DNA from: an uncultured Bacillota bacterium
Lineage (GTDB): Bacteria; Sysuimicrobiota; Sysuimicrobiia; Sysuimicrobiales; Segetimicrobiaceae
NCBI GenBank assembly: GCA_963804645.1
Contig: CAWDRG010000009.1
Span: forward strand, 1,152,001-1,216,000
DNA length: 64,000 nucleotides
Reading direction: 5' to 3'
Position numbers and translations under genes: made by a program. Every line of letters starts with the position of its first letter. Within the stretch, counting starts at the first letter, position 1. Below are positions 36,194 through 54,394 of this stretch, piece by piece. The notes under the pieces were generated by a model. The model did not search any database. It was not told the DNA's origin and was given only the letters and a program-made list of their open reading frames with translations.

Positions 36194-36980
36194 GCCACAG
36201 CGCGAGCAGCTCGTCCGGGGAGCAGTCGCGGATCGACCGGCCGCTCTCGCGCACCGCCTGTTCCAGGCGCGAGAACCGATCCCGGAACTTGTCACACGCC
36301 GCGCGCAGCACCTGCTCGCCGTCGAGCCCGAGATAGCGCGGCAGGTTGGCGACCGTGAATAGGAGATCGCCGAGCTCCTCGGCGACGCGCTCGGGGGCCT
36401 CGCCGGCGGACGCACGCTCGAGCTCCCCGAGCTCCTCGCGCACCTTGCCGGCGGCCTCGGGCAGGCCCGGCCACGTAAACCCGGCCCGGGCGGCGCGGGC
36501 CTGCATCTGCTGCGCGAGCGCCAGGGCCGGCAGCGCGCGCGGAAGCCCGCCGAGGGCGCCCTCGGCGGGCGCTCCGCCGCCGGGCGGGGCCGCCGCGCCG
36601 TCCCGCTCCTCCGCTTTGATCGCTTCCCAGCGCGTCAGGACGGCGTCCGGCGTCTCGGCCCGCGCGTCGCCGAAGACATGGGGATGGCGCCGCACGAGCT
36701 TCTCCGCGAGGCCGCTGACCACGTCGTCGATGGTAAAGGCGCCATCCTCGCGGGCCATCTGCGCATGAAACACGACCTGCAGCAGCAGGTCGCCCAATTC
36801 CTCGCGCAGCCGGTCCGGCGCGCCCGCGTCGATCGCCTCGAGCGTCTCATAGGTCTCTTCAAGCAGATACGACCGCAGCGTCGCGTGCGTCTGCTCGCGG
36901 TCCCACGGGCACCCTCCCGGACCGCGCAGGCGGGCCATGATCGCGACGAGGTCCTCGAACCCCTTCCGCTCGGCGTCCAT
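36180..36980 (-). CDS. mazG: Nucleoside triphosphate pyrophosphohydrolase MazG
   Basis: GCPWDREQT, EELGDLL (twice), RRHPHVFG. Confidence 0.93.
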
Positions 36981-42904: not shown

Positions 42905-44131
42905 ATGGGAAGTCAGTTGTCCGTGAGCGCGGCGGGCGCCGCGGGGTTTCTGGCGGACGTGCAGCACCTGACCGGCGCGCTCGGGGCGGCGCCGGCCCGT
43001 GCGGCCACCCCGGCGGCGGCGCTGCGGGAGATCCGGCACCTGGAGTGCGTGCAGATCGACCCCGTCGCCGTCGTCGAGCGCAACCAGCACCTGGTGCTCG
43101 CCGCGCGGGTGCCGGGCTACGCGCCCGCCCGGCTGGTCGAGCTGCTGCACCGGGGGCGGCTCTTCGAGTACTGGGCCAACGCCATCTGCGCGATTCCGAT
43201 CGAGGATTTTCCGATGTTTGAGGGGACGCGGCGGTGGTTTCAGCGGTACCTCGCGTCCGAGATCGCCGCGCTGCGACCGGTCGTGCGCCGGATCGTGGCG
43301 CAGCTCGAGAAAGAGGGTCCCCGGCCGGCGCGGGCCTTTGTGTCCCCGGAGCGGATCCGCGGCCATTGGGGGGCCGAGGCCAAAGCCACGTCCCACGCGC
43401 TGACGCTTCTGTTTCGCGCGGGCCGGCTCGTGGTCGCCAGGCGGGAGGGCGCGGAGCGGTACTTCGCGCTGCCGGAGCAGGTGATCCCCGCGGACCTGCG
43501 CGCCCGCGCGCGCGCGGTCACGACGGCGGAAGCGAACGACGCCCTGTTCGGGAAGTACGTCCGGGCGTGCCGAGTCTTCGATGCGCGCGATCCGCGGCTC
43601 GGATGGGGCAGGGTTCCCGCCGCCGCCCGGCGGAACGCGCTCGCACGCCGGCTTCGCGCCGGGGAGATCGTGCCGCTCAGGATCGAGGGGGTCGCGCGGC
43701 CGTACTTCGTGCGCGCGCAGGACGTCGACGCGCTCAGGCGCCGCGACGCGGCCGCGCGGGTCGGCGGCGAGCCGGACGAGGGGGTGCGCTTCCTCGCGCC
43801 GCTCGACAACCTGCTCTGGCGGCGTGAACGGCTCAGCGACCTCTTCGGCTTCGAGTATCGGTGGGAAGGATATACGCCGGTCTCGCAGCGCCGGTACGGC
43901 CACTACGCGATGCCGATCTTGAGCGGCGCCCGGCTGATCGGGAGGCTCGATCCGCGGCTCGACCGAGAGCGGGGGCGTCTCGTCGTGCGGCTGCTGCACC
44001 TCGAGCGGGGCGTTGCGCCGACCCGACGCCTGCGCGACCGCTTGGCCGCGGCGCTCGAGCGGTTCGCCGCGTTTCACGGGGCCCGCGACTACGCCGTCGA
44101 GCAGACCGACCCCCCGCGCCTGTGGAGGTAG
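42905..44131 (+). CDS. YcaQ/AlkZ-family winged-helix DNA glycosylase (HTH_42)
   Basis: VQIDP, FEYW, FLAPLDNLLW.R, FEYRWE.Y.P..RRYG.Y. Confidence 0.85.
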   Translation: MGSQLSVSAAGAAGFLADVQHLTGALGAAPARAATPAAALREIRHLECVQIDPVAVVERNQHLVLAARVPGYAPARLVELLHRGRLFEYWANAICAIPIEDFPMFEGTRRWFQRYLASEIAALRPVVRRIVAQLEKEGPRPARAFVSPERIRGHWGAEAKATSHALTLLFRAGRLVVARREGAERYFALPEQVIPADLRARARAVTTAEANDALFGKYVRACRVFDARDPRLGWGRVPAAARRNALARRLRAGEIVPLRIEGVARPYFVRAQDVDALRRRDAAARVGGEPDEGVRFLAPLDNLLWRRERLSDLFGFEYRWEGYTPVSQRRYGHYAMPILSGARLIGRLDPRLDRERGRLVVRLLHLERGVAPTRRLRDRLAAALERFAAFHGARDYAVEQTDPPRLWR

Positions 44132-44154
44132 GGCGGGCCGTCCCGCGCGCAGGA

Positions 44155-44187
44155 CGAGGGCCCGCCGGCACAGCCGGCGGGCCCTCG
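44155..44187. terminator. Perfect 15-bp hairpin between the convergent ycaQ-like gene and glnA
   Basis: CGAGGGCCCGCCGGC-ACA-GCCGGCGGGCCCTCG. Confidence 0.7.
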
Positions 44188-44221
44188 CTCGTCTCTTCGC
44201 GGATCCGCGCCGCGCGTCCGC

Positions 44222-45664
44222 TTATACGTCGTAGTACAGGAAGAACTCGTAGGGCACGGGCCGGATGTTGACCTCGTGGACTTCCTTCGTGCGCTTGTAA
44301 TCGATCCACGTGTCGAGCAGGTCGCGCGTGAACACGTCCCCCTCGAGCAGGAACTCGTGGTCGTCCTCGAGCGCCGCGAGCGAGACGTCGAGCGACCCCG
44401 GCACGCTCTTGATCTTGGCGGCCTCATCCGGCGGCAGCTCGTAGATGTTCCGGTCGAGGGGACCGAACCCCGCCTTCGTAGGATCAATCTTGCGCTTGAT
44501 CCCGTCGAGGCCGGCCATCAGCATGGCCGCGAACCCGAGGTACGGGTTGCACGTGGCGTCCGGGCACCGGAACTCCAGCCGCTTGCTGCTGGCCGCCGCG
44601 GGGCCCGAGAAGTACATCGGGATGCGGATCGCGGCGCTCCGGTTGCGCTTGCTGAACGCGATGTTCACCGGGGCCTCGTAGTGGGGGACGAGCCGGCGGT
44701 ACGAGTTCGTCGTGCACGCGCACAGGCCCAGCAGCGCGTTGACGTGGGTCAGCAGCCCGCCGACGTAGTACAGCGCCTCCTGGCTCAGTTCCGCATAGCC
44801 GCCCTCGCTGTAGAAGAGGTTCGCGCCGCCCTTCCACAGACTCTGGTGGACGTGCATGCCGGTTCCATTATCGCCGAACAGCGGCTTCGGCATGAACGTC
44901 GCGGTCAGGCCGTGGCGGCGGGCGACGTTCTTCACGATGTACTTGTAGCTCATCAGCGAGTCGGCCATTCTCGCGAGCGTGTTGTACTTGATGTCGATCT
45001 CGCACTGCCCGGCCGAGGCGACTTCGTGGTGCTGCATCTCCACCTCGATGCCCCAGGCTTCCATCTGCAGCGACATCTCGCTGCGGAGGTCGAGCAGCGT
45101 GTCGGCCGGCGCGACGGGGAAGTACCCCTCCTTCGAGCGGATCCGGTTGCCCATCCCGGGCTGGCCGGTGTTCCAGATCGCCTCGGGCGAGTCGATGCTG
45201 TACCCCATCCGCTGGGGGAGCACGTCGTACTGGACATTGCTGAACACGAAGAACTCGGCCTCGGGACCCCAGTAGCTCGTGTCCGCGATGCCCGTCGTCT
45301 TGAGGTACTCCTCGGCCTTCTGGGCAACGTGGCGCGGATCCCGCGTGTACGGCTTGCCCGTCGTCGGATCGTTGACGTTGCAGATGACCGAGAGCGTCGG
45401 CACCTCGGTGAACGGATCGGGCCGCGCGCTCGCCGGGTCCGGCATCAGGATCATGTCGCTCTCTTCGATCGCCTGGAACCCGCGGATGCTGCTGCCGTCG
45501 AAGCCGATCCCGCGCTTGAACGTCTTTTCGTCGATCTGGCTCGCGGGGATCGTCGCGTGCTGCCAGGTGCCCGGCATGTCCACGAACTTGAAGTCCACCA
45601 TCTTGATGCCGTGGTCCTTAATGTAGGCGACGACTTCCGACGCGCCCATGTCCTTGCCCGCCAT
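44222..45664 (-). CDS. glnA: Glutamine synthetase type I
   Basis: FDGSSIRG, HHEVA, ATFMPKP.FGDNG.GMHVHQSL, NRSAAIRIP, RNIYEL; GGAGG SD. Confidence 0.97.
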   Translation of the reverse strand: MAGKDMGASEVVAYIKDHGIKMVDFKFVDMPGTWQHATIPASQIDEKTFKRGIGFDGSSIRGFQAIEESDMILMPDPASARPDPFTEVPTLSVICNVNDPTTGKPYTRDPRHVAQKAEEYLKTTGIADTSYWGPEAEFFVFSNVQYDVLPQRMGYSIDSPEAIWNTGQPGMGNRIRSKEGYFPVAPADTLLDLRSEMSLQMEAWGIEVEMQHHEVASAGQCEIDIKYNTLARMADSLMSYKYIVKNVARRHGLTATFMPKPLFGDNGTGMHVHQSLWKGGANLFYSEGGYAELSQEALYYVGGLLTHVNALLGLCACTTNSYRRLVPHYEAPVNIAFSKRNRSAAIRIPMYFSGPAAASSKRLEFRCPDATCNPYLGFAAMLMAGLDGIKRKIDPTKAGFGPLDRNIYELPPDEAAKIKSVPGSLDVSLAALEDDHEFLLEGDVFTRDLLDTWIDYKRTKEVHEVNIRPVPYEFFLYYDV

Positions 45665-45706
45665 GGCCTGCACCTCCGTGTCCCCACGGGACAGAGTCGG
45701 TTCTCG

Positions 45707-45745
45707 AAAACAAAAACGCCTCCCGAGCGAATGCTCGAAAGGCGT
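45707..45745 (-). terminator. Intrinsic terminator inside the glnA 5' leader (attenuator)
   Basis: ACGCCTTTCGAGC-ATTC-GCTCGGGAGGCGT (11 WC + 2 GU pairs) followed by TTTTGTTTT. Confidence 0.8.
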
Positions 45746-45771
45746 CAGGGCCTCCGGTACGTCACGGTACC
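45740..45771 (-). promoter_or_regulatory. ANTAR-like dual hexaloop RNA element in the glnA leader
   Basis: GGTAC-CGTGAC-GTACC, GG, AGGC-CCTGAC-GCCT; second hairpin overlaps the terminator 5' arm. Confidence 0.7.
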
Positions 45772-45778
45772 TGGCCCG

Positions 45779-45807
45779 GTTATACCATGTGCCCGACGGC
45801 CCGTCAA
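45779..45807 (-). promoter_or_regulatory. glnA promoter (extended -10)
   Basis: TTGACG-N17-TATAAC with TGn just before the -10. Confidence 0.75.
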
Positions 45808-45914
45808 CCGGGGCGACGCGCGCGGGCGGGCGGCGCGCGATCCGCGCCGGTGCTTCAACAGATCGAGGGCGCCCCTGGAAGCTGGACGCCCTCGACGCCT
45901 ATGTCGGACGTGAG

Positions 45915-46139
45915 TTACAGCTCGATCGACTCGAGCATGGCATCCAGTTCCCGGCGCAGTTCCGGCGTGTTGTGGTGACCGTGGCTCGCCACCGCGTGGG
46001 TCGCCGCGGCCTCGAGGAGATCCGCGCGCTGCCCCGCCGGGGCCATGATCACCAGCCTGCAGTTCTTTTCACTGGGGAACCGCCCGCAATTTGCCATGAG
46101 CCACTGCCCCTTCGCCAAGCCTGCCTGTTTGAGTTCCAT
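45915..46139 (-). CDS. DUF1059-like small metal-binding protein
   Basis: C.RFPSE.NC...LLEAA..HAV..HGH..TPELR. Confidence 0.7.
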   Translation of the reverse strand: MELKQAGLAKGQWLMANCGRFPSEKNCRLVIMAPAGQRADLLEAAATHAVASHGHHNTPELRRELDAMLESIEL

Positions 46140-46244
46140 CTCGATCAACTCCCTTGTGTGAATGTCGTCCGCCGCGTGCGGCGGTGTGGTGCCGGACCGG
46201 TGCTGGACAAGGATCCAAAGACGGGGCCCGCTCGACGCAACCCG

Positions 46245-46604
46245 TCAGGTGAGTCGGGCGTACGCGGTCATTCCGGTGACGTCGATGACCACCACGGGAT
46301 CGGCTCCGACGACCCAGGCGTCGTGCCCCGGGGGCAGCACCGACACGTCGCCCGGCACGAACTCCTGTTCCGTTCCGTCGTCCATCCGCACCCGCAGGCG
46401 TCCCGCGACGTGGTACTGGGTGTGCGGCGCTTCGCAGCTCTTCGTCTTCACGATCGGTCGAACCGAATCGGACCACTTCCACCCGGGCTCGAACGTGCCC
46501 CGTCCAAACGTAATGCCGCCGAGCGTGACAAGTTCCAACTTGCCCTTTGGAAACGACCGCGTTTCGTCGGGCGCGTTCAGGGTCTTGTGCTGCATCGGTG
46601 CCAT
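46245..46604 (-). CDS. Cupin domain protein
   Basis: EPGWKWS..V.P...T.SC..PH...PPGHDAWVVG. Confidence 0.85.
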   Translation of the reverse strand: MAPMQHKTLNAPDETRSFPKGKLELVTLGGITFGRGTFEPGWKWSDSVRPIVKTKSCEAPHTQYHVAGRLRVRMDDGTEQEFVPGDVSVLPPGHDAWVVGADPVVVIDVTGMTAYARLT

Positions 46605-46752
46605 CGTCCACCCCCTTCTGCCATCGGCTGAGCGATTGCTCTCGGCGCTAGCGTACCGCGCCCCCGTTGCCGTGGCGTTCCGGAGGCCTTCCAGGGCTGT
46701 TCATGCGGAGTTCAAATTGGGGGTTCTGCCGGATCCGGCGCCTGGCGGGCCG

Positions 46753-49700
46753 TCAGACCAGATCGGACGCGAGCCGGAGGTTCTCTTCGAGGGTGTCGGT
46801 GCGGCCGCGGAGCCTGGCCGAGGCCCACGCCGCGCCGCCGAGCGCCTCCCGGAGCCGGGTGACGACGCGCTCGTGGTCCGGCTCGTCGACTGGCCAGCGG
46901 GGGGTCCCGATGGCCTCGCGCATCCCGTCCGCGGCGCCGAGCAGGCGCGCCGCCGGCTCGACACTGCCGCCGGCCTCTGCGACGCGCGCCAGGCCCTCCA
47001 AACACTCGATGATTCCACGCTGGTCTCCCAGGGCCCGGCGGCGCTGGAGGCTGTCGCGGATCAGCCGGGCCGCGTCCGGGAGGTCGCCCGCAGCGCACGC
47101 CACCATGCCGAGTTGAAACAACGGCGTGGCGAGGTCCCCGTCGGGATTGCTGTGCTCGAGCAGCCGGAGGCTCTCCTCGAGCAGCTGCTTCGCCCGCGCG
47201 TGCTCGCCGCGGTACCGGGCGAGCGTACCCAGCCCGGCGAGCGATTCCGCGATCCCGCTCGTGTCCTCGAGGGCCCGCTGGACGGGGAGGCTCTCGTCGA
47301 ACAGCGCCGCGGCCCTCGCCATCTCGCCCCGGGCGAGGGCGACGAGCCCGAGGCCGCACTTCCGGTACGCGGCGTCCCATTTCTTCCCGAGCTCGTCCGC
47401 CAGCGCGATCCCCGCCTCCAGCAGGCCGGCGGCCCGCTCGTGCTGGCCCCGCATCAGCGCGATCCGCCCCAGTCTGCCGAGCGACGCCGCCACCGCCGGT
47501 TTGCGGCCGAGCTGACGTTGCAGTCCCAGCGCTTCTTCCATCAGGACGTCCGCGCGTCCGTATTCCGCGTGGTTCGTCGCGAGGATCCCGAGTTGATAGA
47601 GACACTGGGCGATCCCCGCCGTGTCCCCGACGCGGCGGAAGAGCGCCAAGCTCTCCTCGAGCAGGCGGGCGGCTCCCCCGGGATCCCCCTCGTGCAGGGC
47701 CACCGTCGCGATCTCGGCCAGGGCGACCGCGCTCGTCCACGGGTCGGTCACCGACCGGCCCAGCGCCCGGCTTTCCTCGCAGATCGCGACGCCGCGCGCA
47801 TGCTGGCCGCGGTGCCACGTCGCGTGGCCGAGCCAGGCGAGCGACAGCATCAGCGCCTCCCGATCTTGCTGCCCGCGCGCGATCGGGACCGCCTGCTCCA
47901 AGACCGCGCCGGCGTGATCGAAGTCGTCCTGCGCGAAGGCCAGCCGTCCGGCTCCGATCAGCACCCGCATGCGCACGACGGGGTCGGCCCGTTCCGAGCG
48001 CAGCGCGCGCTCGAGCCAGTCGCGTCCCTCGCTGAGGTAGCCGCGCCCGTGCCAATATCCCGAGAGCGCCGCCGTCATCAGCACGCCCGCGTCGTCCGCC
48101 TGTTGGCCGAGCGACCACTCGAGCGCGGCGCGCAGGTTGTCGTGCTCATTCTCGAGCCGGTCCAGCCACACGGCCTGGTCCGGTCCCCTCAACGCCGGCG
48201 CCGCTTCGTCGGCCAGGCGCCCGAAGAACGCGCCGTGGCGTCGGCGCACCGCCACGGCCTCGCCCGACTCGACGAGCTTGGTCTGGATGTACTGCCGCAC
48301 CGTCTCCAGCAGGCGGTAGCGGCCCGGTTCCATCAGCACCATCGACTTGTCCACGAGCTGGGCCAGCAGGTTGAGCACGTCCACCTCGTCGAGCGCGTCG
48401 CCGGCGCCGACGGCCTGCGCCGCGTCCAGCGTGAATCCGCCGGCGAACACCGAGAGATGCCGCAGCAGCGCGCGCTCCGGTTCCGGCAGGAGGTCGTAGC
48501 TCCAGTCCATGGCGGCGCGGAGGGTTTGGTGGCGGGACATGGCCGTCCGCGTGCCCCCGGTCAGCAGCCGGAACCGGTCGTTGAGGCGGGCGGCGATGAC
48601 TTCCACCGGCAGCGCCTTCAGCCGTGCCGCCGCGAGTTCGAGCGCCAGCGGGATCCCGTCGAGGTGCGTGCAGATCGCGGCGACCATCGACGCGTTCTCG
48701 GCCGTCAGCGTGAAGCCCGGCTGGCTCAGCGCCGCCCGCTCAAGGAACAGGCGTACCCCGTCGTACTGCAGCAGGTGCTCCGCGCGCCCGGACTGACGCG
48801 CGTCGGGAACCGACAGCGATGAGACCCGATACACGGCTTCGCCCGCGACGCCGAGCACCTCTCGGCTCGTCGCCAGAATGCGGAGATCGGGACAGCGGCG
48901 GAGCAGGGCCTCGGCAAACTGCACGCATCCGCTCGCGACATGCTCGCAGTTGTCCAGCAGCAAGAGCGCGCGCTTGGTGAGCAGATAGTCGCTCAGGGCG
49001 GTGACGAGCGACCGCGTCGTCTCCTCTCGAAGATCGAGGACGGAGGCGACGGCCTGGGGGATCAGCGTCGCGTCGGGCAGGACGGAGAGGTCGACCAGCC
49101 AGACTCCGTCCGGGAACTCCGGCTGCGCGCCGGCCGCCACTTCGAGCGCGAGGCGGGTCTTGCCGACGCCGCCGGCGCCGACGAGCGTCAACTGCCGGCT
49201 GGCCGCGAGGCGCTCCCGGACCTCCGCGAGCTCGCGCGTCCGACCGACGAAGCTTGTGAGGGCGAGCGGGAGGTTGGTGCGTCCGCGCGCGGGCTGGTCC
49301 GCGGGCGGTCGCGCCGGCGCGGGCGGCGGAGGAGCGGCGGGGGGCACCGTGCCGGCGACGACGTCCTCGTAGAGGCGCTGGCTCGCGGCGTCGGGCGCGG
49401 CGTCGAACTCGCGGCTGAGCGCCTCGCGCAGGATCTGATACTGGCGGAGCGCATGCAGGCGCTGGCCCGTGGCCGCGTACAGACGCATCAGGCCGCGGTG
49501 CGCCTCCTCCCGGCCCGCGTCGGCCACGAGGAGTAGCTGGAAGGTCTCGATCGCCTGCCCGTACGCCCGCTCCGCCTCATACAGCGCCGCCAGATCGTAC
49601 AGCAGCGCGAGATACTCCTGCTGCAGCGCGTCCCGCCGGCCGACGGACCACTCCTCGTACCGGTCCTCGGGAAGCACTTCACCGCCGTACAGGCCGAGGG

Positions 49701-50118
49701 CCGATTGATACGCGTCGATCCGCTTTGTCGTCCTTGCGCGGATGACGGCCTGCTCGAACGCGTCGGCGTCGATCCACACCGCATCGCGCGCCAGCATGAT
49801 GACGTCGTCTTGGAGCGACAGTGTGCGTGGGGCCGGCGCGGGCCCGTCGGCTTCGAGCACACGTCTGGCGATGTGCATCGCCTTGCGGAGGTTATTCGCC
49901 GCCGCGGGGGGCTCGAGGTCGGGCCACAGCCACTCGGTGACCTGCTCCCGGTGGAGGCGGTGGCCCGGGGTGAGCGCCAGCAACTTGACGAGGGTTCTCG
50001 ACTTGCGAAGGGGCCACGCGGCGGAAGGAATCTCCCGGGGTCCGGACGCCACCCGGAACCCGCCGAGAATCCAGATGCTCAGTTGGCTGCCCGGCTCCTC
50101 GAGGTGATCACCCGGCAT
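46753..50118 (-). CDS. AfsR/SARP-type regulator: BTAD + NB-ARC-like ATPase + TPR repeats
   Basis: EEAHRGLMRLY, NLPLALTSFVGR, GAGGVGKTRLA, LLDNCEH, LDGIPLALELAAA, TPR tail. Confidence 0.88.
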   Translation of the reverse strand: MPGDHLEEPGSQLSIWILGGFRVASGPREIPSAAWPLRKSRTLVKLLALTPGHRLHREQVTEWLWPDLEPPAAANNLRKAMHIARRVLEADGPAPAPRTLSLQDDVIMLARDAVWIDADAFEQAVIRARTTKRIDAYQSALGLYGGEVLPEDRYEEWSVGRRDALQQEYLALLYDLAALYEAERAYGQAIETFQLLLVADAGREEAHRGLMRLYAATGQRLHALRQYQILREALSREFDAAPDAASQRLYEDVVAGTVPPAAPPPPAPARPPADQPARGRTNLPLALTSFVGRTRELAEVRERLAASRQLTLVGAGGVGKTRLALEVAAGAQPEFPDGVWLVDLSVLPDATLIPQAVASVLDLREETTRSLVTALSDYLLTKRALLLLDNCEHVASGCVQFAEALLRRCPDLRILATSREVLGVAGEAVYRVSSLSVPDARQSGRAEHLLQYDGVRLFLERAALSQPGFTLTAENASMVAAICTHLDGIPLALELAAARLKALPVEVIAARLNDRFRLLTGGTRTAMSRHQTLRAAMDWSYDLLPEPERALLRHLSVFAGGFTLDAAQAVGAGDALDEVDVLNLLAQLVDKSMVLMEPGRYRLLETVRQYIQTKLVESGEAVAVRRRHGAFFGRLADEAAPALRGPDQAVWLDRLENEHDNLRAALEWSLGQQADDAGVLMTAALSGYWHGRGYLSEGRDWLERALRSERADPVVRMRVLIGAGRLAFAQDDFDHAGAVLEQAVPIARGQQDREALMLSLAWLGHATWHRGQHARGVAICEESRALGRSVTDPWTSAVALAEIATVALHEGDPGGAARLLEESLALFRRVGDTAGIAQCLYQLGILATNHAEYGRADVLMEEALGLQRQLGRKPAVAASLGRLGRIALMRGQHERAAGLLEAGIALADELGKKWDAAYRKCGLGLVALARGEMARAAALFDESLPVQRALEDTSGIAESLAGLGTLARYRGEHARAKQLLEESLRLLEHSNPDGDLATPLFQLGMVACAAGDLPDAARLIRDSLQRRRALGDQRGIIECLEGLARVAEAGGSVEPAARLLGAADGMREAIGTPRWPVDEPDHERVVTRLREALGGAAWASARLRGRTDTLEENLRLASDLV

Positions 50119-50291
50119 GCCCGCACGCTCCTTTGCCCGTCGGCTTTCGAGGCATGCGTCGCGGATGCCTCCACGGCCGCGGGCGGGCGCCGGGGGTTCC
50201 CGGGGCGCTTCGGCAGGCGCCGGAGCGCGCGGTCCGAAAGTCATTCAGCGGCGCGGCCGGCGGTCGCGACGATATCGCGGAGGGATGGCCG

Positions 50292-50946: not shown

Positions 50947-52689
50947 CTAGCGCTCGCGGCCGGCGCGCCGGCGCGCGGGGCGCTTGGCGCGCGGCTTCGA
51001 CGCGGCGGTCGACCGCTTGGCCGCCGCTTTCTTGGTCCGAGCCGGTTTCTTGGCTTTGGCCGCGGCGCGCTTCGGCCGCGGAGGGGGCGGCGCGGCCTGC
51101 GGGCCGCCGACCGGCACCAACTCGAACTGCGCGGTCGGCGCCGGCACCCCGGCGCCCTTCACCGTGCCCGGCAGAATCCTAAATACCGGACAGAGGAAGA
51201 CCTCGATCCGGCCGCCGCCCGGCGCAAACAGCGCCGGCAGGTGGAGCGATCGAAGCCCGACGAGCGTCAGGGGGCCGGTCGGCGGCGTGCTGAGCCACCG
51301 GCGCGCGGTCTCGTAGGCCGGCGTCCCGGGGACGGCGACCGCGGTGATGCGGGTCTTCCCGGCCGCGTCGCCGAACGCGAACAGGAACGGACGTCCGTCG
51401 ACGAACTGGCTCCGGCCCCCGTAGAACTGGCCGGTCATGTACACGTAGGCGGTTTCGACCACCGGCGCGTGCCGGAACGTCATCGTGCCGCCCGTGAACG
51501 CGACGCGCGTGGACGGCTGGAAGTCCGGAAACGGCATCGGGTGGACGGCGTCGATCTGCGCCCACTCCGCCTCGCCGGGCGCGTCGATCGAGACCGGCGG
51601 GAACGTCAGGCCGCGCTCGGTCACGATGGTGCGCACGGGGTGGATCTCGAGCAGATGCGGGATCACGGGGTGTCCGACGGACGCGTGGTCGGGCAGCATC
51701 CGCAGCAGGCCCGTGACCGTGACGCGCTGCTGCGTCCCAATCATCTCGTCGAGCAGCCGCGCGTACTGGCTGTGCCCGGTGCCGCCGGCCTCGAGCGCCC
51801 CCGGCCGCACCGCGTTCTGGATGACGCAGGCGATCGTGTCGCGCGTCGCGCCGTCGGCCGGGGCGGGCGACAGCCCGAACGCCACGCCCAACCCGTACTC
51901 GCCTTCGCCGGTGCGCGCCGTCACGTACCCTTCCGCGGTCACGTCGATGCCCGGCGAGAACCGGAGGTACGCGAGCGGCTCGGCGCCCGAGACGACGAAG
52001 TCCTGCTGGTCGCCCGAGCTCGGGAGGATGCTCACCGCGCTCAGCACCCGCAGGAGGTCCGCGGGCGTCCGCACCTCGATCCGGCCCGCCGGGCGCGCCG
52101 GCGTGTGCTGGCGCATCTCGTCCGACACCAGGATCGCGCGGGCGATCTCCCGCATGGGGGTGCGCGTGTTGCGGCTCTGCCGCTGGATGCGGAGGAACGC
52201 TTCCTGCTCGTCGATCCCCTCGCGCTGCATCAGGATGCCTTTCGCGCGGTCGACCAGCTTGCGCGTCTCCAGGGTCTCCTTGAGGTTGCCGACCTCCTGC
52301 TGGAGCGCGCGCAGCTCCGCGAAGCGCGCCATCGCCACCTCGATCACGGGGACCAGCTCGGCCTCGCGCACCGGCTTGACGAGGTAGGCCAGGACCCCGG
52401 CCTCTTGGGCCCGCTGGACGAGGTCGCGCTCGCTCCACGCCGTCAGGAGGATGATCGGCCGCGGCTGCCGCGTCATGATCGTTGAGGCGGCCGAGATCCC
52501 GTCGAGCCCCGGCATCTTGATGTCGAGGAAGATCAGCTCCGGGTTGAGCTTGGCGGCGAGCGCCACCGCTTCCTCACCGTCGCTCGCTTCCCCGACCACC
52601 GTGTAGTCGTGCTCCTCCAGCATCGTGCGGAGGCCCATGCGGATGACCGGCTCGTCGTCGGCGATGAGGATGCGCATCGCGTCGGTCAT
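50947..52689 (-). CDS. REC-ANTAR response regulator (PdtaR/EutV-like) with a long C-terminal extension and basic tail
   Basis: IADDE, LDIKMPGLDG, YLVKP; ANTAR RKLVDRAKGILM...EAF..IQRQS....M.EIA; then about 340 aa of unknown function and a K/A/R-rich tail. Confidence 0.88.
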   Translation of the reverse strand: MTDAMRILIADDEPVIRMGLRTMLEEHDYTVVGEASDGEEAVALAAKLNPELIFLDIKMPGLDGISAASTIMTRQPRPIILLTAWSERDLVQRAQEAGVLAYLVKPVREAELVPVIEVAMARFAELRALQQEVGNLKETLETRKLVDRAKGILMQREGIDEQEAFLRIQRQSRNTRTPMREIARAILVSDEMRQHTPARPAGRIEVRTPADLLRVLSAVSILPSSGDQQDFVVSGAEPLAYLRFSPGIDVTAEGYVTARTGEGEYGLGVAFGLSPAPADGATRDTIACVIQNAVRPGALEAGGTGHSQYARLLDEMIGTQQRVTVTGLLRMLPDHASVGHPVIPHLLEIHPVRTIVTERGLTFPPVSIDAPGEAEWAQIDAVHPMPFPDFQPSTRVAFTGGTMTFRHAPVVETAYVYMTGQFYGGRSQFVDGRPFLFAFGDAAGKTRITAVAVPGTPAYETARRWLSTPPTGPLTLVGLRSLHLPALFAPGGGRIEVFLCPVFRILPGTVKGAGVPAPTAQFELVPVGGPQAAPPPPRPKRAAAKAKKPARTKKAAAKRSTAASKPRAKRPARRRAGRER

Positions 52690-52690
52690 C

Positions 52691-54380
52691 CTACGATCCC
52701 TCCGGGCGCGGCATCGTGATCACGGCGTGCGTGCCCCCCGGGCCGCCGAACGTAATTTGGCCCTTGAGGTCGCTGCCGACGAGCGTGTGCACGATCTGCA
52801 GGCCGAGGCCGGCGGACCGGTCCGGCACGAATCCCTGCGGCAGGCCCACGCCGTCGTCCTGGACCTCGACGCGCAGCGTATCGCGCCCCGCGGCAAGCGT
52901 GATCATCACGGTCCCGCCGCTGCGGCCCTCGAACGCGTGCTCCAGCGCGTTCTGCAGCAGCTCGTTCACGACGAGCGCAAGCGAGGTGGCCTGCTGGCTC
53001 GGCAGGCTCAGGTCGTCGCCGCTCACCTTGATCTCGAGCGTGAGGCCCGGCCGGGCCATCGTCTGCCGCACCGTCTGCGCGACGCGCTCGAGCATCTCGT
53101 GGACGGCGACCTGCCGCAGGCCGTCGGCGGCGAGAATCTCGTGGACGCCCGCGATGCTCAGGATCCGGTTGATCGTCTCGGTGAGGACCTCGCGGCCCGA
53201 GACTTCGCGGCCGTCGCGCAGCTGCAGGCGCAGCAGCATCGCGATCATCTGGAGGTTGTTCTTCACCCGGTGGTGCATCTCGCGCACCATCGCCGACTTA
53301 ACCACCAGGCTCGCATTCTCGATCGCGAGCGCGGTTTGGTTCGCGAGCGTCTGCAGCATGCTGATCTCGGACGGCGTGAACGTGTGCCGCCGCGCGGTGT
53401 AGCAGTTGACGACGCCCAGCGTGTGGTCCCGCACGCGCAGCGGCACGGACAGGAGCGACCGCACGGGCGACGGTTCGGGCAGCTCGTTCGTGCGGAAGCG
53501 CGGATCGTCCGCGAGATCGTGGCTGACGGCCGGCTGCCCGGTCGCCGCCGCCTCCCCGGGAACGCCCTCACCGACGCGCAGCGTCCGCCGGGGCCGCGGC
53601 CCGGGGGCCTCGGGGTGGGAGGCGGCGAGCACGAGCTCCTCGCCCTCGAGCAGCATCAGCGTGCACAGCGGCGCCTGCAGCACGCGCGCGGCCATCTCCA
53701 CGAGGAGGCGGAGGATCTGCTCGAGATAGAGCGGAGACGTCAGCGTCTCGCTCGCCTCGGCGAGCGTGCGCAGCTCGAGGATCTGGCGCCGCATGCTGTC
53801 GTGGAGGCGCGCCTTCTCGAGCGTGCCGCTCGCGAGATCCGCGATGATGCTCAGCAGCTCGATCTCGTCGTCGCCCCAGGCGTGCGCGCCGGTCGTCTGG
53901 ACGTTGATCGCGCCGAGCGTCCGGCCCTCCACGGTGAGCGGGACCGCGAGCAGCGATTGGAACAGTGACTCGTGGGTCTCCGGCAGGAGCTTGAACCGCG
54001 GGTCCTGCACCGCGTTGGTGGACGCGACCGGCTCCCCGTGCTGCGCCGCCCATCCGGTCAGGCCCTCGCCGAACTTGAGGCGTGCCGCGCCGACCGCGTC
54101 GGCGGCGAGCCCCGTCGTCGCTTTGAGGACCAGGTACTCGCGCGAGGCGTCCAGCAGATAGATCGAGCAGCTGTCGACGGGCATCACTTCCGCGGTCGTC
54201 CGGGTGATCAGGGTGAGCGTGGTGTCGAGGTCGAACGTGGCGCCGATCGCGCGGCTGATCTCCCGCAGCGCCGAGATCTCCGCGGTCTTGCGGGCGAGCT
54301 CCCGCGCCGTATCGTCGGTGTGGCTCTGCTCGGGCGTGATCGCCCCTCGGCGCGGCACTACGGCCTCCCGCGGCCTCGGA

Positions 54381-54394
<14 letters not shown>
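52691..54394 (-). CDS. Cytoplasmic sensor histidine kinase, 2 GAF + HisKA_2 + HATPase (PdtaS/EutW-like)
   Basis: EMHHRVKNNLQ, NELLQNALEHAF, DDGVGLP, GLGLQIV; two GAF repeats; no TM segment. Confidence 0.9.

Follow-up and report, generated by a model that had tools for sequence, protein, structure and literature searches.

How is transcription of glnA, the gene of glutamine synthetase, controlled in an uncultured Bacillota bacterium of the family Segetimicrobiaceae (Sysuimicrobiota)? We addressed this question for a stretch of 64,000 nucleotides (contig CAWDRG010000009.1 of assembly GCA_963804645.1, positions 1,152,001 to 1,216,000), which is called the window here and to which coordinates refer unless another contig is named. 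Its glnA leader carries a promoter, two short hairpins with loops of six bases (hexaloops), termed P1 and P2, and an intrinsic terminator. The original prediction, made from the letters of the window, had taken both hairpins together as the twin target of an ANTAR antitermination protein, read through a variant loop code. Our comparisons lead to a modified view: the leader is probably a protein-dependent transcription attenuator, most likely opened via P2 by a REC-ANTAR response regulator encoded nearby, while the twin arrangement would be a local elaboration of a more widespread single-hairpin unit.

The glnA leader and its alternative folds

The leader and its gene comprise the following features, in the order in which they are read:

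45802..45807, minus strand: -35 hexamer TTGACG, read directly; TTGAC is kept in 21/21 related glnA leaders
45779..45787, minus strand: extended -10, TGG followed by TATAAC, the hexamer itself at 45784-45779
45756..45771, minus strand: P1, hairpin or palindrome GGTAC[CGTGAC]GTACC, 5 bp with a hexaloop, part of the minimum-energy fold
between P1 and P2, minus strand: linker GG, 2 nt
45740..45753, minus strand: P2, putative antiterminator hairpin AGGC[CCTGAC]GCCT, 4 bp with a hexaloop
45707..45746, minus strand: intrinsic terminator, stem 45746-45715, followed by the U-tract TTTTTGTTTT to 45707
45673..45692, minus strand: small hairpin GTCCC-GTG-GGGAC (45692-45680), then the Shine-Dalgarno sequence GGAGG
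44222..45664, minus strand: glnA, type I glutamine synthetase of 480 aa with its start codon ATG at 45664 (Pfam Gln-synt_C 4.9e-124, Gln-synt_N 1.2e-32)

The promoter, with 17 nt between -35 and -10, as well as P1, the linker and P2 were all found where the original prediction had placed them, and so was the terminator that follows and shares bases with P2. We count 14 pairs in its stem instead of 13. Eight of these pairs are G-C, the loop measures 4 nt and the U-tract covers 45716-45707, as is characteristic of Rho-independent terminators; a terminator scan of 45400-46200 returned this site as the only terminator-like one. Since the three final bases of the P2 loop and the P2 3' arm also belong to the terminator 5' arm, both structures are mutually exclusive, as had been claimed.

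Folding of the leader gave P1 together with the terminator as the minimum-energy structure (-42.9 kcal/mol, z = -4.1), and only 1 of 200 shuffled sequences was as stable. P1 and P2 reach -10.8 kcal/mol, compared with -23.8 kcal/mol for the terminator alone. If the terminator 3' arm is treated as not yet transcribed, the best fold becomes P1 plus an extended P2, and thus both states of the proposed switch were recovered. Being outcompeted in energy, P2 is therefore expected to win only if assisted, as is usual where antitermination depends on a protein.

Transcription is predicted to start at approximately 45772. A promoter scan made no call at the glnA promoter; its rule demands a T at the last -10 position, whereas the hexamer ends with C. 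Within 44000-47500, an Rfam 15 scan at permissive threshold gave no family at gathering score, glutamine riboswitches included. The best score (ctRNA_pGA1, 22.9 bits with 45 needed) covered the terminator only. Leader-peptide attenuation was ruled out by inspection: the sole start-like codon is a GUG in the P1 loop, and this loop is variable in relatives.

Eight RNA runs cover part of the stretch, all as assembled contigs from which neither start, end nor strand can be read. One metatranscriptome contig of 293 nt spans 45455-45747 with 0 differences, crossing the termination point into glnA. It lends weak support to read-through, given that strand and ends are not stated and DNA carry-over is possible. 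The missing cover over P1 and the promoter carries no information.

Two neighbouring elements should be mentioned. The small hairpin GTCCC-GTG-GGGAC directly 5' of the glnA Shine-Dalgarno sequence can be recognized by eye in most related leaders and may act in mRNA stability or translation. Just upstream of the promoter, an open reading frame (ORF) of 77 aa (45915-46148, minus strand) matches DUF1059 with 20.4 bits, slightly under the Pfam cut-off of 21.1.

Conservation among related glnA leaders

For comparison, glnA was found in 20 of 22 same-family genomes, and the leaders of these 20 were combined with that of the window's own genome, yielding 21 leaders. TTGAC, a spacer of 17 or 18 nt and a -10-like hexamer are present in all of them, the latter preceded by TGG in 20 leaders and by TGA in one. 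The P2 core GGC[C..GA.]GCC was likewise found in 21/21. Its loop always begins with C, positions 2 and 3 are free, G and A occupy positions 4 and 5 throughout, and C (19) or U (2) ends it; the 11 distinct loops follow the consensus CNNGAY.

P1, and with it the pair of both hairpins, occurs in 16 of the 21 leaders, once with a bulged A in its 5' arm (G022), and is missing from five of the six sampled leaders of one genus. It starts 6-9 nt past the -10, i.e. at about +1. The P1 loop (n=16) varies more widely: U 12, C 3, A 1 at position 1; G 10, A 4, C 2 at position 2; A 12, T 3, G 1 at position 3; G 16/16 at position 4; A 14, C 2 at position 5; and a free position 6. This gives 12 distinct loops among 16 and the consensus YNNGAN.

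The loop form CNUGAC, as originally described, is thus true for both window loops, but it is not the conserved form: P2 follows CNNGAY, and the P1 loops are mostly U-initial. The G at position 4 (G4) of ANTAR targets did hold in both loops (16/16 P1, 21/21 P2) and at 46/46 other sites of the lineage, the last count being biased because the search model itself contains that G. The A at position 1 (A1) of the published dual-hexaloop target is absent, both window loops beginning with C, and motif models that require A1 would miss this leader, as had been foreseen.

The terminator with its U-tract was recognized by eye in 20/21 family leaders. The remaining one, from G009 (L119), has an intact stem without U-tract, as does a site of the window's own genome (G000:C9:987539-987588). 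Among 28 leaders, covariation was seen in the terminator stem (both sides changed in 4 of 9 predicted pairs), but its foot GACGCC and the GGCC before it are constant. The fourth pair of P2 varies as well (17 leaders, alignment A4: GC 11, AU 3, GU 3, unpaired 0).

A nitrogen regulon across the lineage

A covariance model, R1, comprising the P2 5' arm, the loop and the terminator, was applied to a lineage sample of 94 genomes; the whole phylum sample falls in one order. At E <= 0.01, matches were obtained in 63/94 genomes, mostly more than one per genome. In the window's own genome, R1 scored 59.9 bits at glnA and 40.9 bits (E 2.7e-5) at the leader of a Pyridoxal_deC gene, encoding a pyridoxal phosphate-dependent decarboxylase. 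A third site is weaker (28.4 bits), has the loop UGUGAC and lacks a U-tract; the gene behind it was read as a LysE-type exporter, without Pfam match in the chosen frame. No ammonium transporter was detected in this genome at a completeness of 96.8%.

Forty non-glnA sites and two further sites of the own genome made up 42 loci, 41 of which were scanned for the first downstream ORF, one locus cut by a contig end being left out. At these non-training sites, the ORF encodes a REC protein with ANTAR in nine cases, an ammonium transporter (Ammonium_transp) in eight, Aminotran_1_2 and Pyridoxal_deC in two each, and a REC-only protein, a glutamine synthetase, LysE and GNAT in one each. No Pfam match was obtained for 16/41, among them eight conserved ORFs of 47-52 aa and three membrane proteins. 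Judged by the genes it precedes, the P2-plus-terminator unit is predicted to gate a nitrogen regulon across the lineage.

The 46 loops aligned by the model read C 45, U 1 at position 1; G 21, A 22, C 2, U 1 at position 2; position 3 is free; then G 46; A 44, G 2; and C 44, U 2, with the reservation that R1 itself favours those letters. The loop CACGGC occurs at three sites in relatives. In the other families of the order, P2 and terminator still precede glnA and the upstream part differs. In one family the promoter carries GAGGTAC[CGTGCC]GTACCTC, separated from P2 by about 16-18 nt in contrast to 2-3 nt; another has a GAATC-containing element ahead of P2 and no hexaloop-G4 hairpin. In three genomes glnA is without such a leader and the element is located between glnA and a downstream REC-ANTAR gene. 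The conserved unit is a single CNNGAC hexaloop hairpin, with the twin arrangement as a local elaboration before glnA.

Outside the lineage, R1 was run on 80 glnA loci of other phyla and found the motif upstream of glnA in L033 only, which carries the same leader as the relative G020; two further matches, both weak, were located downstream of glnA. Taken by itself, the 12-base core is uninformative: if one mismatch is allowed, the window has 43 matches where 35.9 are expected. A second exact core match at 36649-36660 was discounted since it lies inside an apparent coding region. Look-alike stretches in relatives yielded nothing relevant.

Some regulon members deserve a separate remark. The eight ORFs of 47-52 aa behind R1 leaders (L191, L194, L204, L207, L214, L217, L222, L223) share a motif close to the N terminus, e.g. 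DPMALWVGTWTP, and have no Pfam match. They are predicted to encode a small protein under the same nitrogen switch. At L197, L198, L213 and L219, P2-terminator units stand in tandem, in two or three copies, both upstream and downstream of REC-ANTAR genes and ahead of an ammonium transporter gene.

Distribution of the first hairpin

P1 in the form GGUAC[YNNGAN]GUACC is confined to the glnA leaders of two families, the second of which contributes a single leader. Upstream of the 46 further sites, a hexaloop-G4 hairpin of at least 3 bp was found 23 times, against a shuffled mean of 23.1. For at least 4 bp the count was 15/46 against a mean of 10.2, a value reached by 14 of 200 shuffles, and several of the counted hairpins are tandem P2 copies or lie within the glnA coding end. 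Thus the terminator/antiterminator leader of the original prediction persists, but the twin is not the conserved unit. In several regulator and transporter leaders, the -10 as read lies only about 6-14 nt ahead of P2, and therefore there is no room for P1.

The window's own genome gives a similar picture. Two tandem C.TGAC hexaloop hairpins exist at the glnA site only (1 of 57,614 twin-hexaloop arrangements), and hence the genome scan that had been proposed failed to reveal a regulon of such twins. Nor was a twin-hairpin regulon visible among 929 terminator-like sites with 254 overlapping twin-hexaloop arrangements. Here the class with G4 in both loops counts 33, compared with 31 for G/C, 29 for C/G and 26 for C/C, i.e. 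there is no excess.

Several candidates were rejected. Hairpins upstream of three membrane-protein leaders looked P1-like by eye, with GAGAC in the loop, but fold with loops of 3 or 6 nt and no G4. The hairpin GGAG[CAAGAU]UUCC of G047 is absent from the minimum-energy fold. On contig C11, 16 nt identical to the leader were attributed to chance, neither hairpins nor terminator being present there. The same contig carries another site (G000:C11, about 82,400-82,530; L133 3900-4040, minus strand), where a promoter-like TGGTATAAT precedes a short transcript in which GGC[CGCGCC]GCC overlaps a terminator. The gene downstream of this site was read as methylglyoxal synthase; the site stems from a loose pattern search, not from an R1 match.

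The REC-ANTAR regulator

Two genes further upstream on the same strand are central for the question of what opens the leader:

50947..52689, minus strand: response regulator with REC, ANTAR and a C-terminal extension (Pfam Response_reg 6.4e-28, ANTAR 1.6e-21)
52691..54394, minus strand: GAF-GAF-HisKA_2-HATPase histidine kinase (Pfam), directly upstream of the regulator gene

The Pfam matches bear out the REC and ANTAR domains that had been assigned to the former, and its adjacency to the latter suggests that kinase and regulator form a pair. The own genome holds two matches to PF03861, one of them 5.3 kb upstream of the glnA leader. Among solved structures, the REC-ANTAR part is closest to PDB entry 1s8n ('putative antiterminator'; E 1.6e-54, residues 5-187), which we take to be Rv1626/PdtaR, followed by EutV (6wsh, 1e-38). 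The residue that aligns with the G4-stacking Tyr164 of EutV is Phe. The C-terminal extension of about 390 aa (50947-52108) ends in a basic tail rich in Lys, Ala, Pro and Arg; it has no Pfam match, and a protein-atlas search returned unnamed clusters only (best score 0.87). We further observed that glnA-linked ANTAR matches of the same family lie in long open frames (510-1195 aa), in contrast to 187-195 aa in another family.

PF03861 was detected in 56/61 genomes searched. Of the 51 genomes with both an ANTAR gene and glnA, 30 have the two on one contig and at most 10 kb apart (29/50 without the unpublished G034), and many of the remaining 21 consist of short contigs. R1 matches occur in 50/56 ANTAR-positive and in 0/5 ANTAR-negative genomes. 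The latter five come from two genera only and therefore represent at most two independent losses.

In the window, a gene with BTAD, NB-ARC and TPR domains (AfsR-like; 46753-50244, minus strand) lies between the ANTAR regulator and glnA. The distance between these two is 6.5-6.8 kb in G000 and G004, 1.5-3.8 kb in most of the family and 7.7 kb in G008, which suggests that the AfsR-like gene is an insertion. Besides, family f1 possesses a second kind of REC protein (L195, L199, L205, L225) with weak ANTAR matches (E 1e-8 to 1e-11; L225 REC only), by eye without the G4-stacking aromatic residue. Its gene always stands right after a promoter and P2-terminator leader; this kind was not found in the window's genome.

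Comparison with known ANTAR systems

Among the targets described, the closest relative of P2 is the GnfR site of Geobacter. The REC-ANTAR protein GnfR of Geobacter sulfurreducens bound RNA carrying CAGGCAANGGCGCC (PMC2995071), which is described there as conserved and as overlapping the leader terminators of nif, glnK and amtB (PMC2995071, Ueki and Lovley, 2010). Written as a hairpin, CAGGCAANGGCGCC is GGC[AANGGC]GCC and has the 3-bp stem, the hexaloop, G4 and C6 in common with P2. It differs at loop position 1 (C here, A there) and position 5 (A here, G there). Correspondingly, GGC-hexaloop-GCC overlaps the leader terminators of several nitrogen genes in the lineage. The likeness extends to the system as a whole: GnfK/GnfR, as portrayed in that source, combines a REC-ANTAR regulator and a kinase with leader terminators before nitrogen genes (nifH, nifEN, nifX, glnK, amtB). 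The GnfR binding assay used a fragment described as having one conserved site, to which a single P2 would be comparable. In contrast to the RpoN-type promoters reported for Geobacter, those found here are sigma-70-like, and the regulon, as predicted from sequence, takes in glnA and regulator genes.

The general ANTAR target is given as a pair of hairpins with A1 and G4 and stems of 3 bp or more; among the nitrogen genes preceded by matches to it are "synthase enzymes for glutamate, glutamine" (PMC3369931). Those sections of a review that list targets contain dual hairpins only (PMC12591593). The accounts of EutV/eut, NasR/nasF, AmiR/amiE and NasT/NalA (PMC3369931, PMC8934654, PMC10783516) resemble the glnA leader in having two short hexaloop hairpins with G4, the second overlapping a terminator, and likewise a REC-ANTAR gene nearby and a nitrogen theme. 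However, the lineage has no A1, lacks the first hairpin at most regulon sites and keeps the P1 stem invariant. The reported EutV-RNA complex shows G4 stacked on Tyr164 and no specific contact of A1, and Met172 is described as necessary (PMC8934654); the window regulator deviates from EutV by an Arg for Met172 and by the additional C-terminal region of about 390 aa. The action of NasT is described to be weakened when A1 and G4 are mutated jointly in either of the loops (PMC10783516).

Of the solved relatives, 1s8n, nearest to the REC-ANTAR part of the regulator, links it to PdtaS/PdtaR (Rv3220c/Rv1626) of Mycobacterium tuberculosis. The kinase partner of PdtaR is reported to be a GAF-containing cytoplasmic kinase. 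A review names it as Rv3220c, and, in its part on this system, reports translational targets in lipid and redox genes and describes no glnA terminator switch (PMC12591593). Furthermore, Rv1626 keeps Met at the position of EutV Met172 in our alignment, unlike the window regulator. In actinobacterial ANTAR-target RNAs, A1 and G4 are stated to be only slightly more than 50% conserved (PMC8164766, Mehta and Ramesh, 2021). High-GC genomes and departures from A1 are thus shared with that group, but its targets, according to the same account, mostly overlap the ribosome-binding site, with few before terminators, whereas here the departure from A1 is systematic (C in 21/21 glnA P2 loops and at 45/46 other sites) and not scatter. 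Full-text literature searches of the main texts brought up neither a C-initial nor a single-hairpin class of ANTAR targets, although such loops may be listed in supplements.

Proposed mechanism and alternative explanations

We propose that transcription starts at the sigma-70-type promoter near 45772 and that, by default, the RNA would fold into the 14-pair terminator and stop at the U-tract 45716-45707. The weak P2, GGC[CNNGAC]GCC, would occupy the 5' foot of the terminator; once held by a protein, as may happen under nitrogen limitation, it should prevent the terminator and let glnA be transcribed. The most likely protein is the REC-ANTAR regulator 50947-52689, which would be phosphorylated by the adjacent GAF kinase and read the flipped-out G4 of the hexaloop in a EutV-like manner. 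P1 probably presents a similar loop to the other subunit of the dimer, which is the least certain step.

Several points weigh against such ANTAR-dependent attenuation. Neither loop has A1, although joint A1/G4 mutations mattered for EutV, NasR and NasT as these are described (PMC3369931, PMC10783516), and most regulon sites lack the second hairpin that is required according to the literature. In the window regulator, Arg stands at the aligned position of EutV Met172, which is described as obligatory for the binding of RNA. The same Arg was seen by eye in six motif-preceded REC-ANTAR proteins of family f4, from two genera, and the second ANTAR protein of the own genome has Gln there. Six ANTAR-positive genomes are without R1 match, and synteny cannot separate regulator from target because ANTAR genes are themselves regulon members. 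The alignment of relatives, proposed originally as a check, did recover P2 in 21/21 and P1 in 16/21 leaders, but covariation is lacking in the P2 core (3/4 pairs constant, only the fourth pair varying) and in P1 (4/5 pairs constant, the fifth deviating by the bulge only). With these pairs invariant, compensatory change neither backs nor contradicts the helices. Finally, the P2 loop bases A5, C6 and often G4 are paired in the terminator stem as well, and the conservation of this loop is consequently confounded.

A bolder version, which we put forward only tentatively, gives the ANTAR regulators of this lineage a recognition code of their own: a single C-initial hexaloop, GGC[CNNGAC]GCC, at or near the transcript 5' end would suffice, the protein face with Arg for Met172 would read this code, and P1 would be an optional booster. 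One might instead attribute the reading of P2 and terminator to a non-ANTAR RNA-binding protein or a small ligand, with the REC-ANTAR genes as mere members of the regulon. Loops without A1, the mostly single hairpin and the replaced Met172 would suit such a reader, and the element stands in the leaders of REC-ANTAR genes themselves (9/41 sites plus one REC-only), so that synteny and co-occurrence could reflect co-regulation. However, positive autoregulation is usual in ANTAR-type regulatory systems, a hairpin of 12-14 nt is too small for known ligand-sensing folds, and Rfam gives no match at gathering score. Since, in addition, the motif was not found in the five ANTAR-less genomes and the Geobacter GnfR site of the same stem and loop length is reported to be bound by an ANTAR regulator, we give this explanation little credence. 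An unregulated leader, in which a 5' stabilizing hairpin and a leaky terminator merely set a low basal glnA level, is very improbable. It would agree with P1 at the extreme 5' end of the predicted transcript and with a terminator as strong as -23.8 kcal/mol, but the core GGCC..GAC.GCC stays fixed while the rest of the terminator covaries, and therefore a sequence-specific reader is needed; moreover, the element stands preferentially ahead of nitrogen genes and regulators.

The role of P1 has to be weighed separately, as a further ANTAR contact and a DNA operator both come into question. In the latter case, which we regard as unlikely, GGTAC-N6-GTACC at about +2 to +17 would bind a dimeric factor that blocks glnA, and P2 with the terminator alone would form the RNA switch. 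The NtcA box is GTA-N8-TAC, CRP-type operators are 5-6-5 palindromes, and glnA is a classic target of nitrogen regulators. P1 as DNA contains GTA-N8-TAC, presumably the shape of the cyanobacterial NtcA box, and is placed at the glnA transcription start. Its stem is identical in 17/17 leaders of two families, between which the first 120 residues of GlnA show 66% identity, and it stays fixed while the terminator stem and promoter spacer vary freely. The distance to the -10 is steady (6-9 nt), and in the second family P1 remains at the promoter although the linker grows from 2-3 to about 16-18 nt. The existence of P1-less regulon members would fit as well. In contrast to an operator of the NtcA or CRP type, however, the spacer is asymmetric: G4 (16/16) and A5 (14/16) have no mirror C or T at positions 3 and 2, which fits a strand-specific, RNA-level constraint. 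The P1 loop YNNGAN is similar to the P2 loop CNNGAC, with a C-G closing pair in both, and the bulged A in the 5' arm of G022 is tolerable for an RNA stem but not for a spaced half-site. Furthermore, GGTAC-N6-GTACC has 5 sites in the genome with about 5 expected from base composition, no such regulon is visible, and no candidate factor was found. Taken together, P1 as an RNA element is favoured, if only slightly.

Significance

ANTAR control of nitrogen genes, including those of glutamine synthesis, is already documented in the literature cited (PMC3369931, PMC2995071). This limits the claim of a variant ANTAR code at glnA, of which the absence of A1 and ANTAR as the best candidate opener remain. 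What is new is the C- or U-initial loop variant, the frequent lack of the first hairpin, and the altered residue and extension of the regulator. Motif searches demanding A1 or two hairpins would miss such sites. With the P2-plus-terminator unit, the lineage gains a testable nitrogen regulon of glnA, amtB, aminotransferases, a decarboxylase, exporters and regulators, together with a 12-base signature for annotation.

For the ANTAR family, this lineage represents a natural experiment in which G4 is kept, A1 is systematically C or U and the second hairpin is often missing. The loss of A1 fits the reported structural finding that A1 makes no contact to the protein (PMC8934654), and the generality of the dual-hairpin rule is called into question. 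If the single C-initial hexaloop code should prove true, the dual-hairpin, A1/G4 rule would not be valid for the whole ANTAR family.

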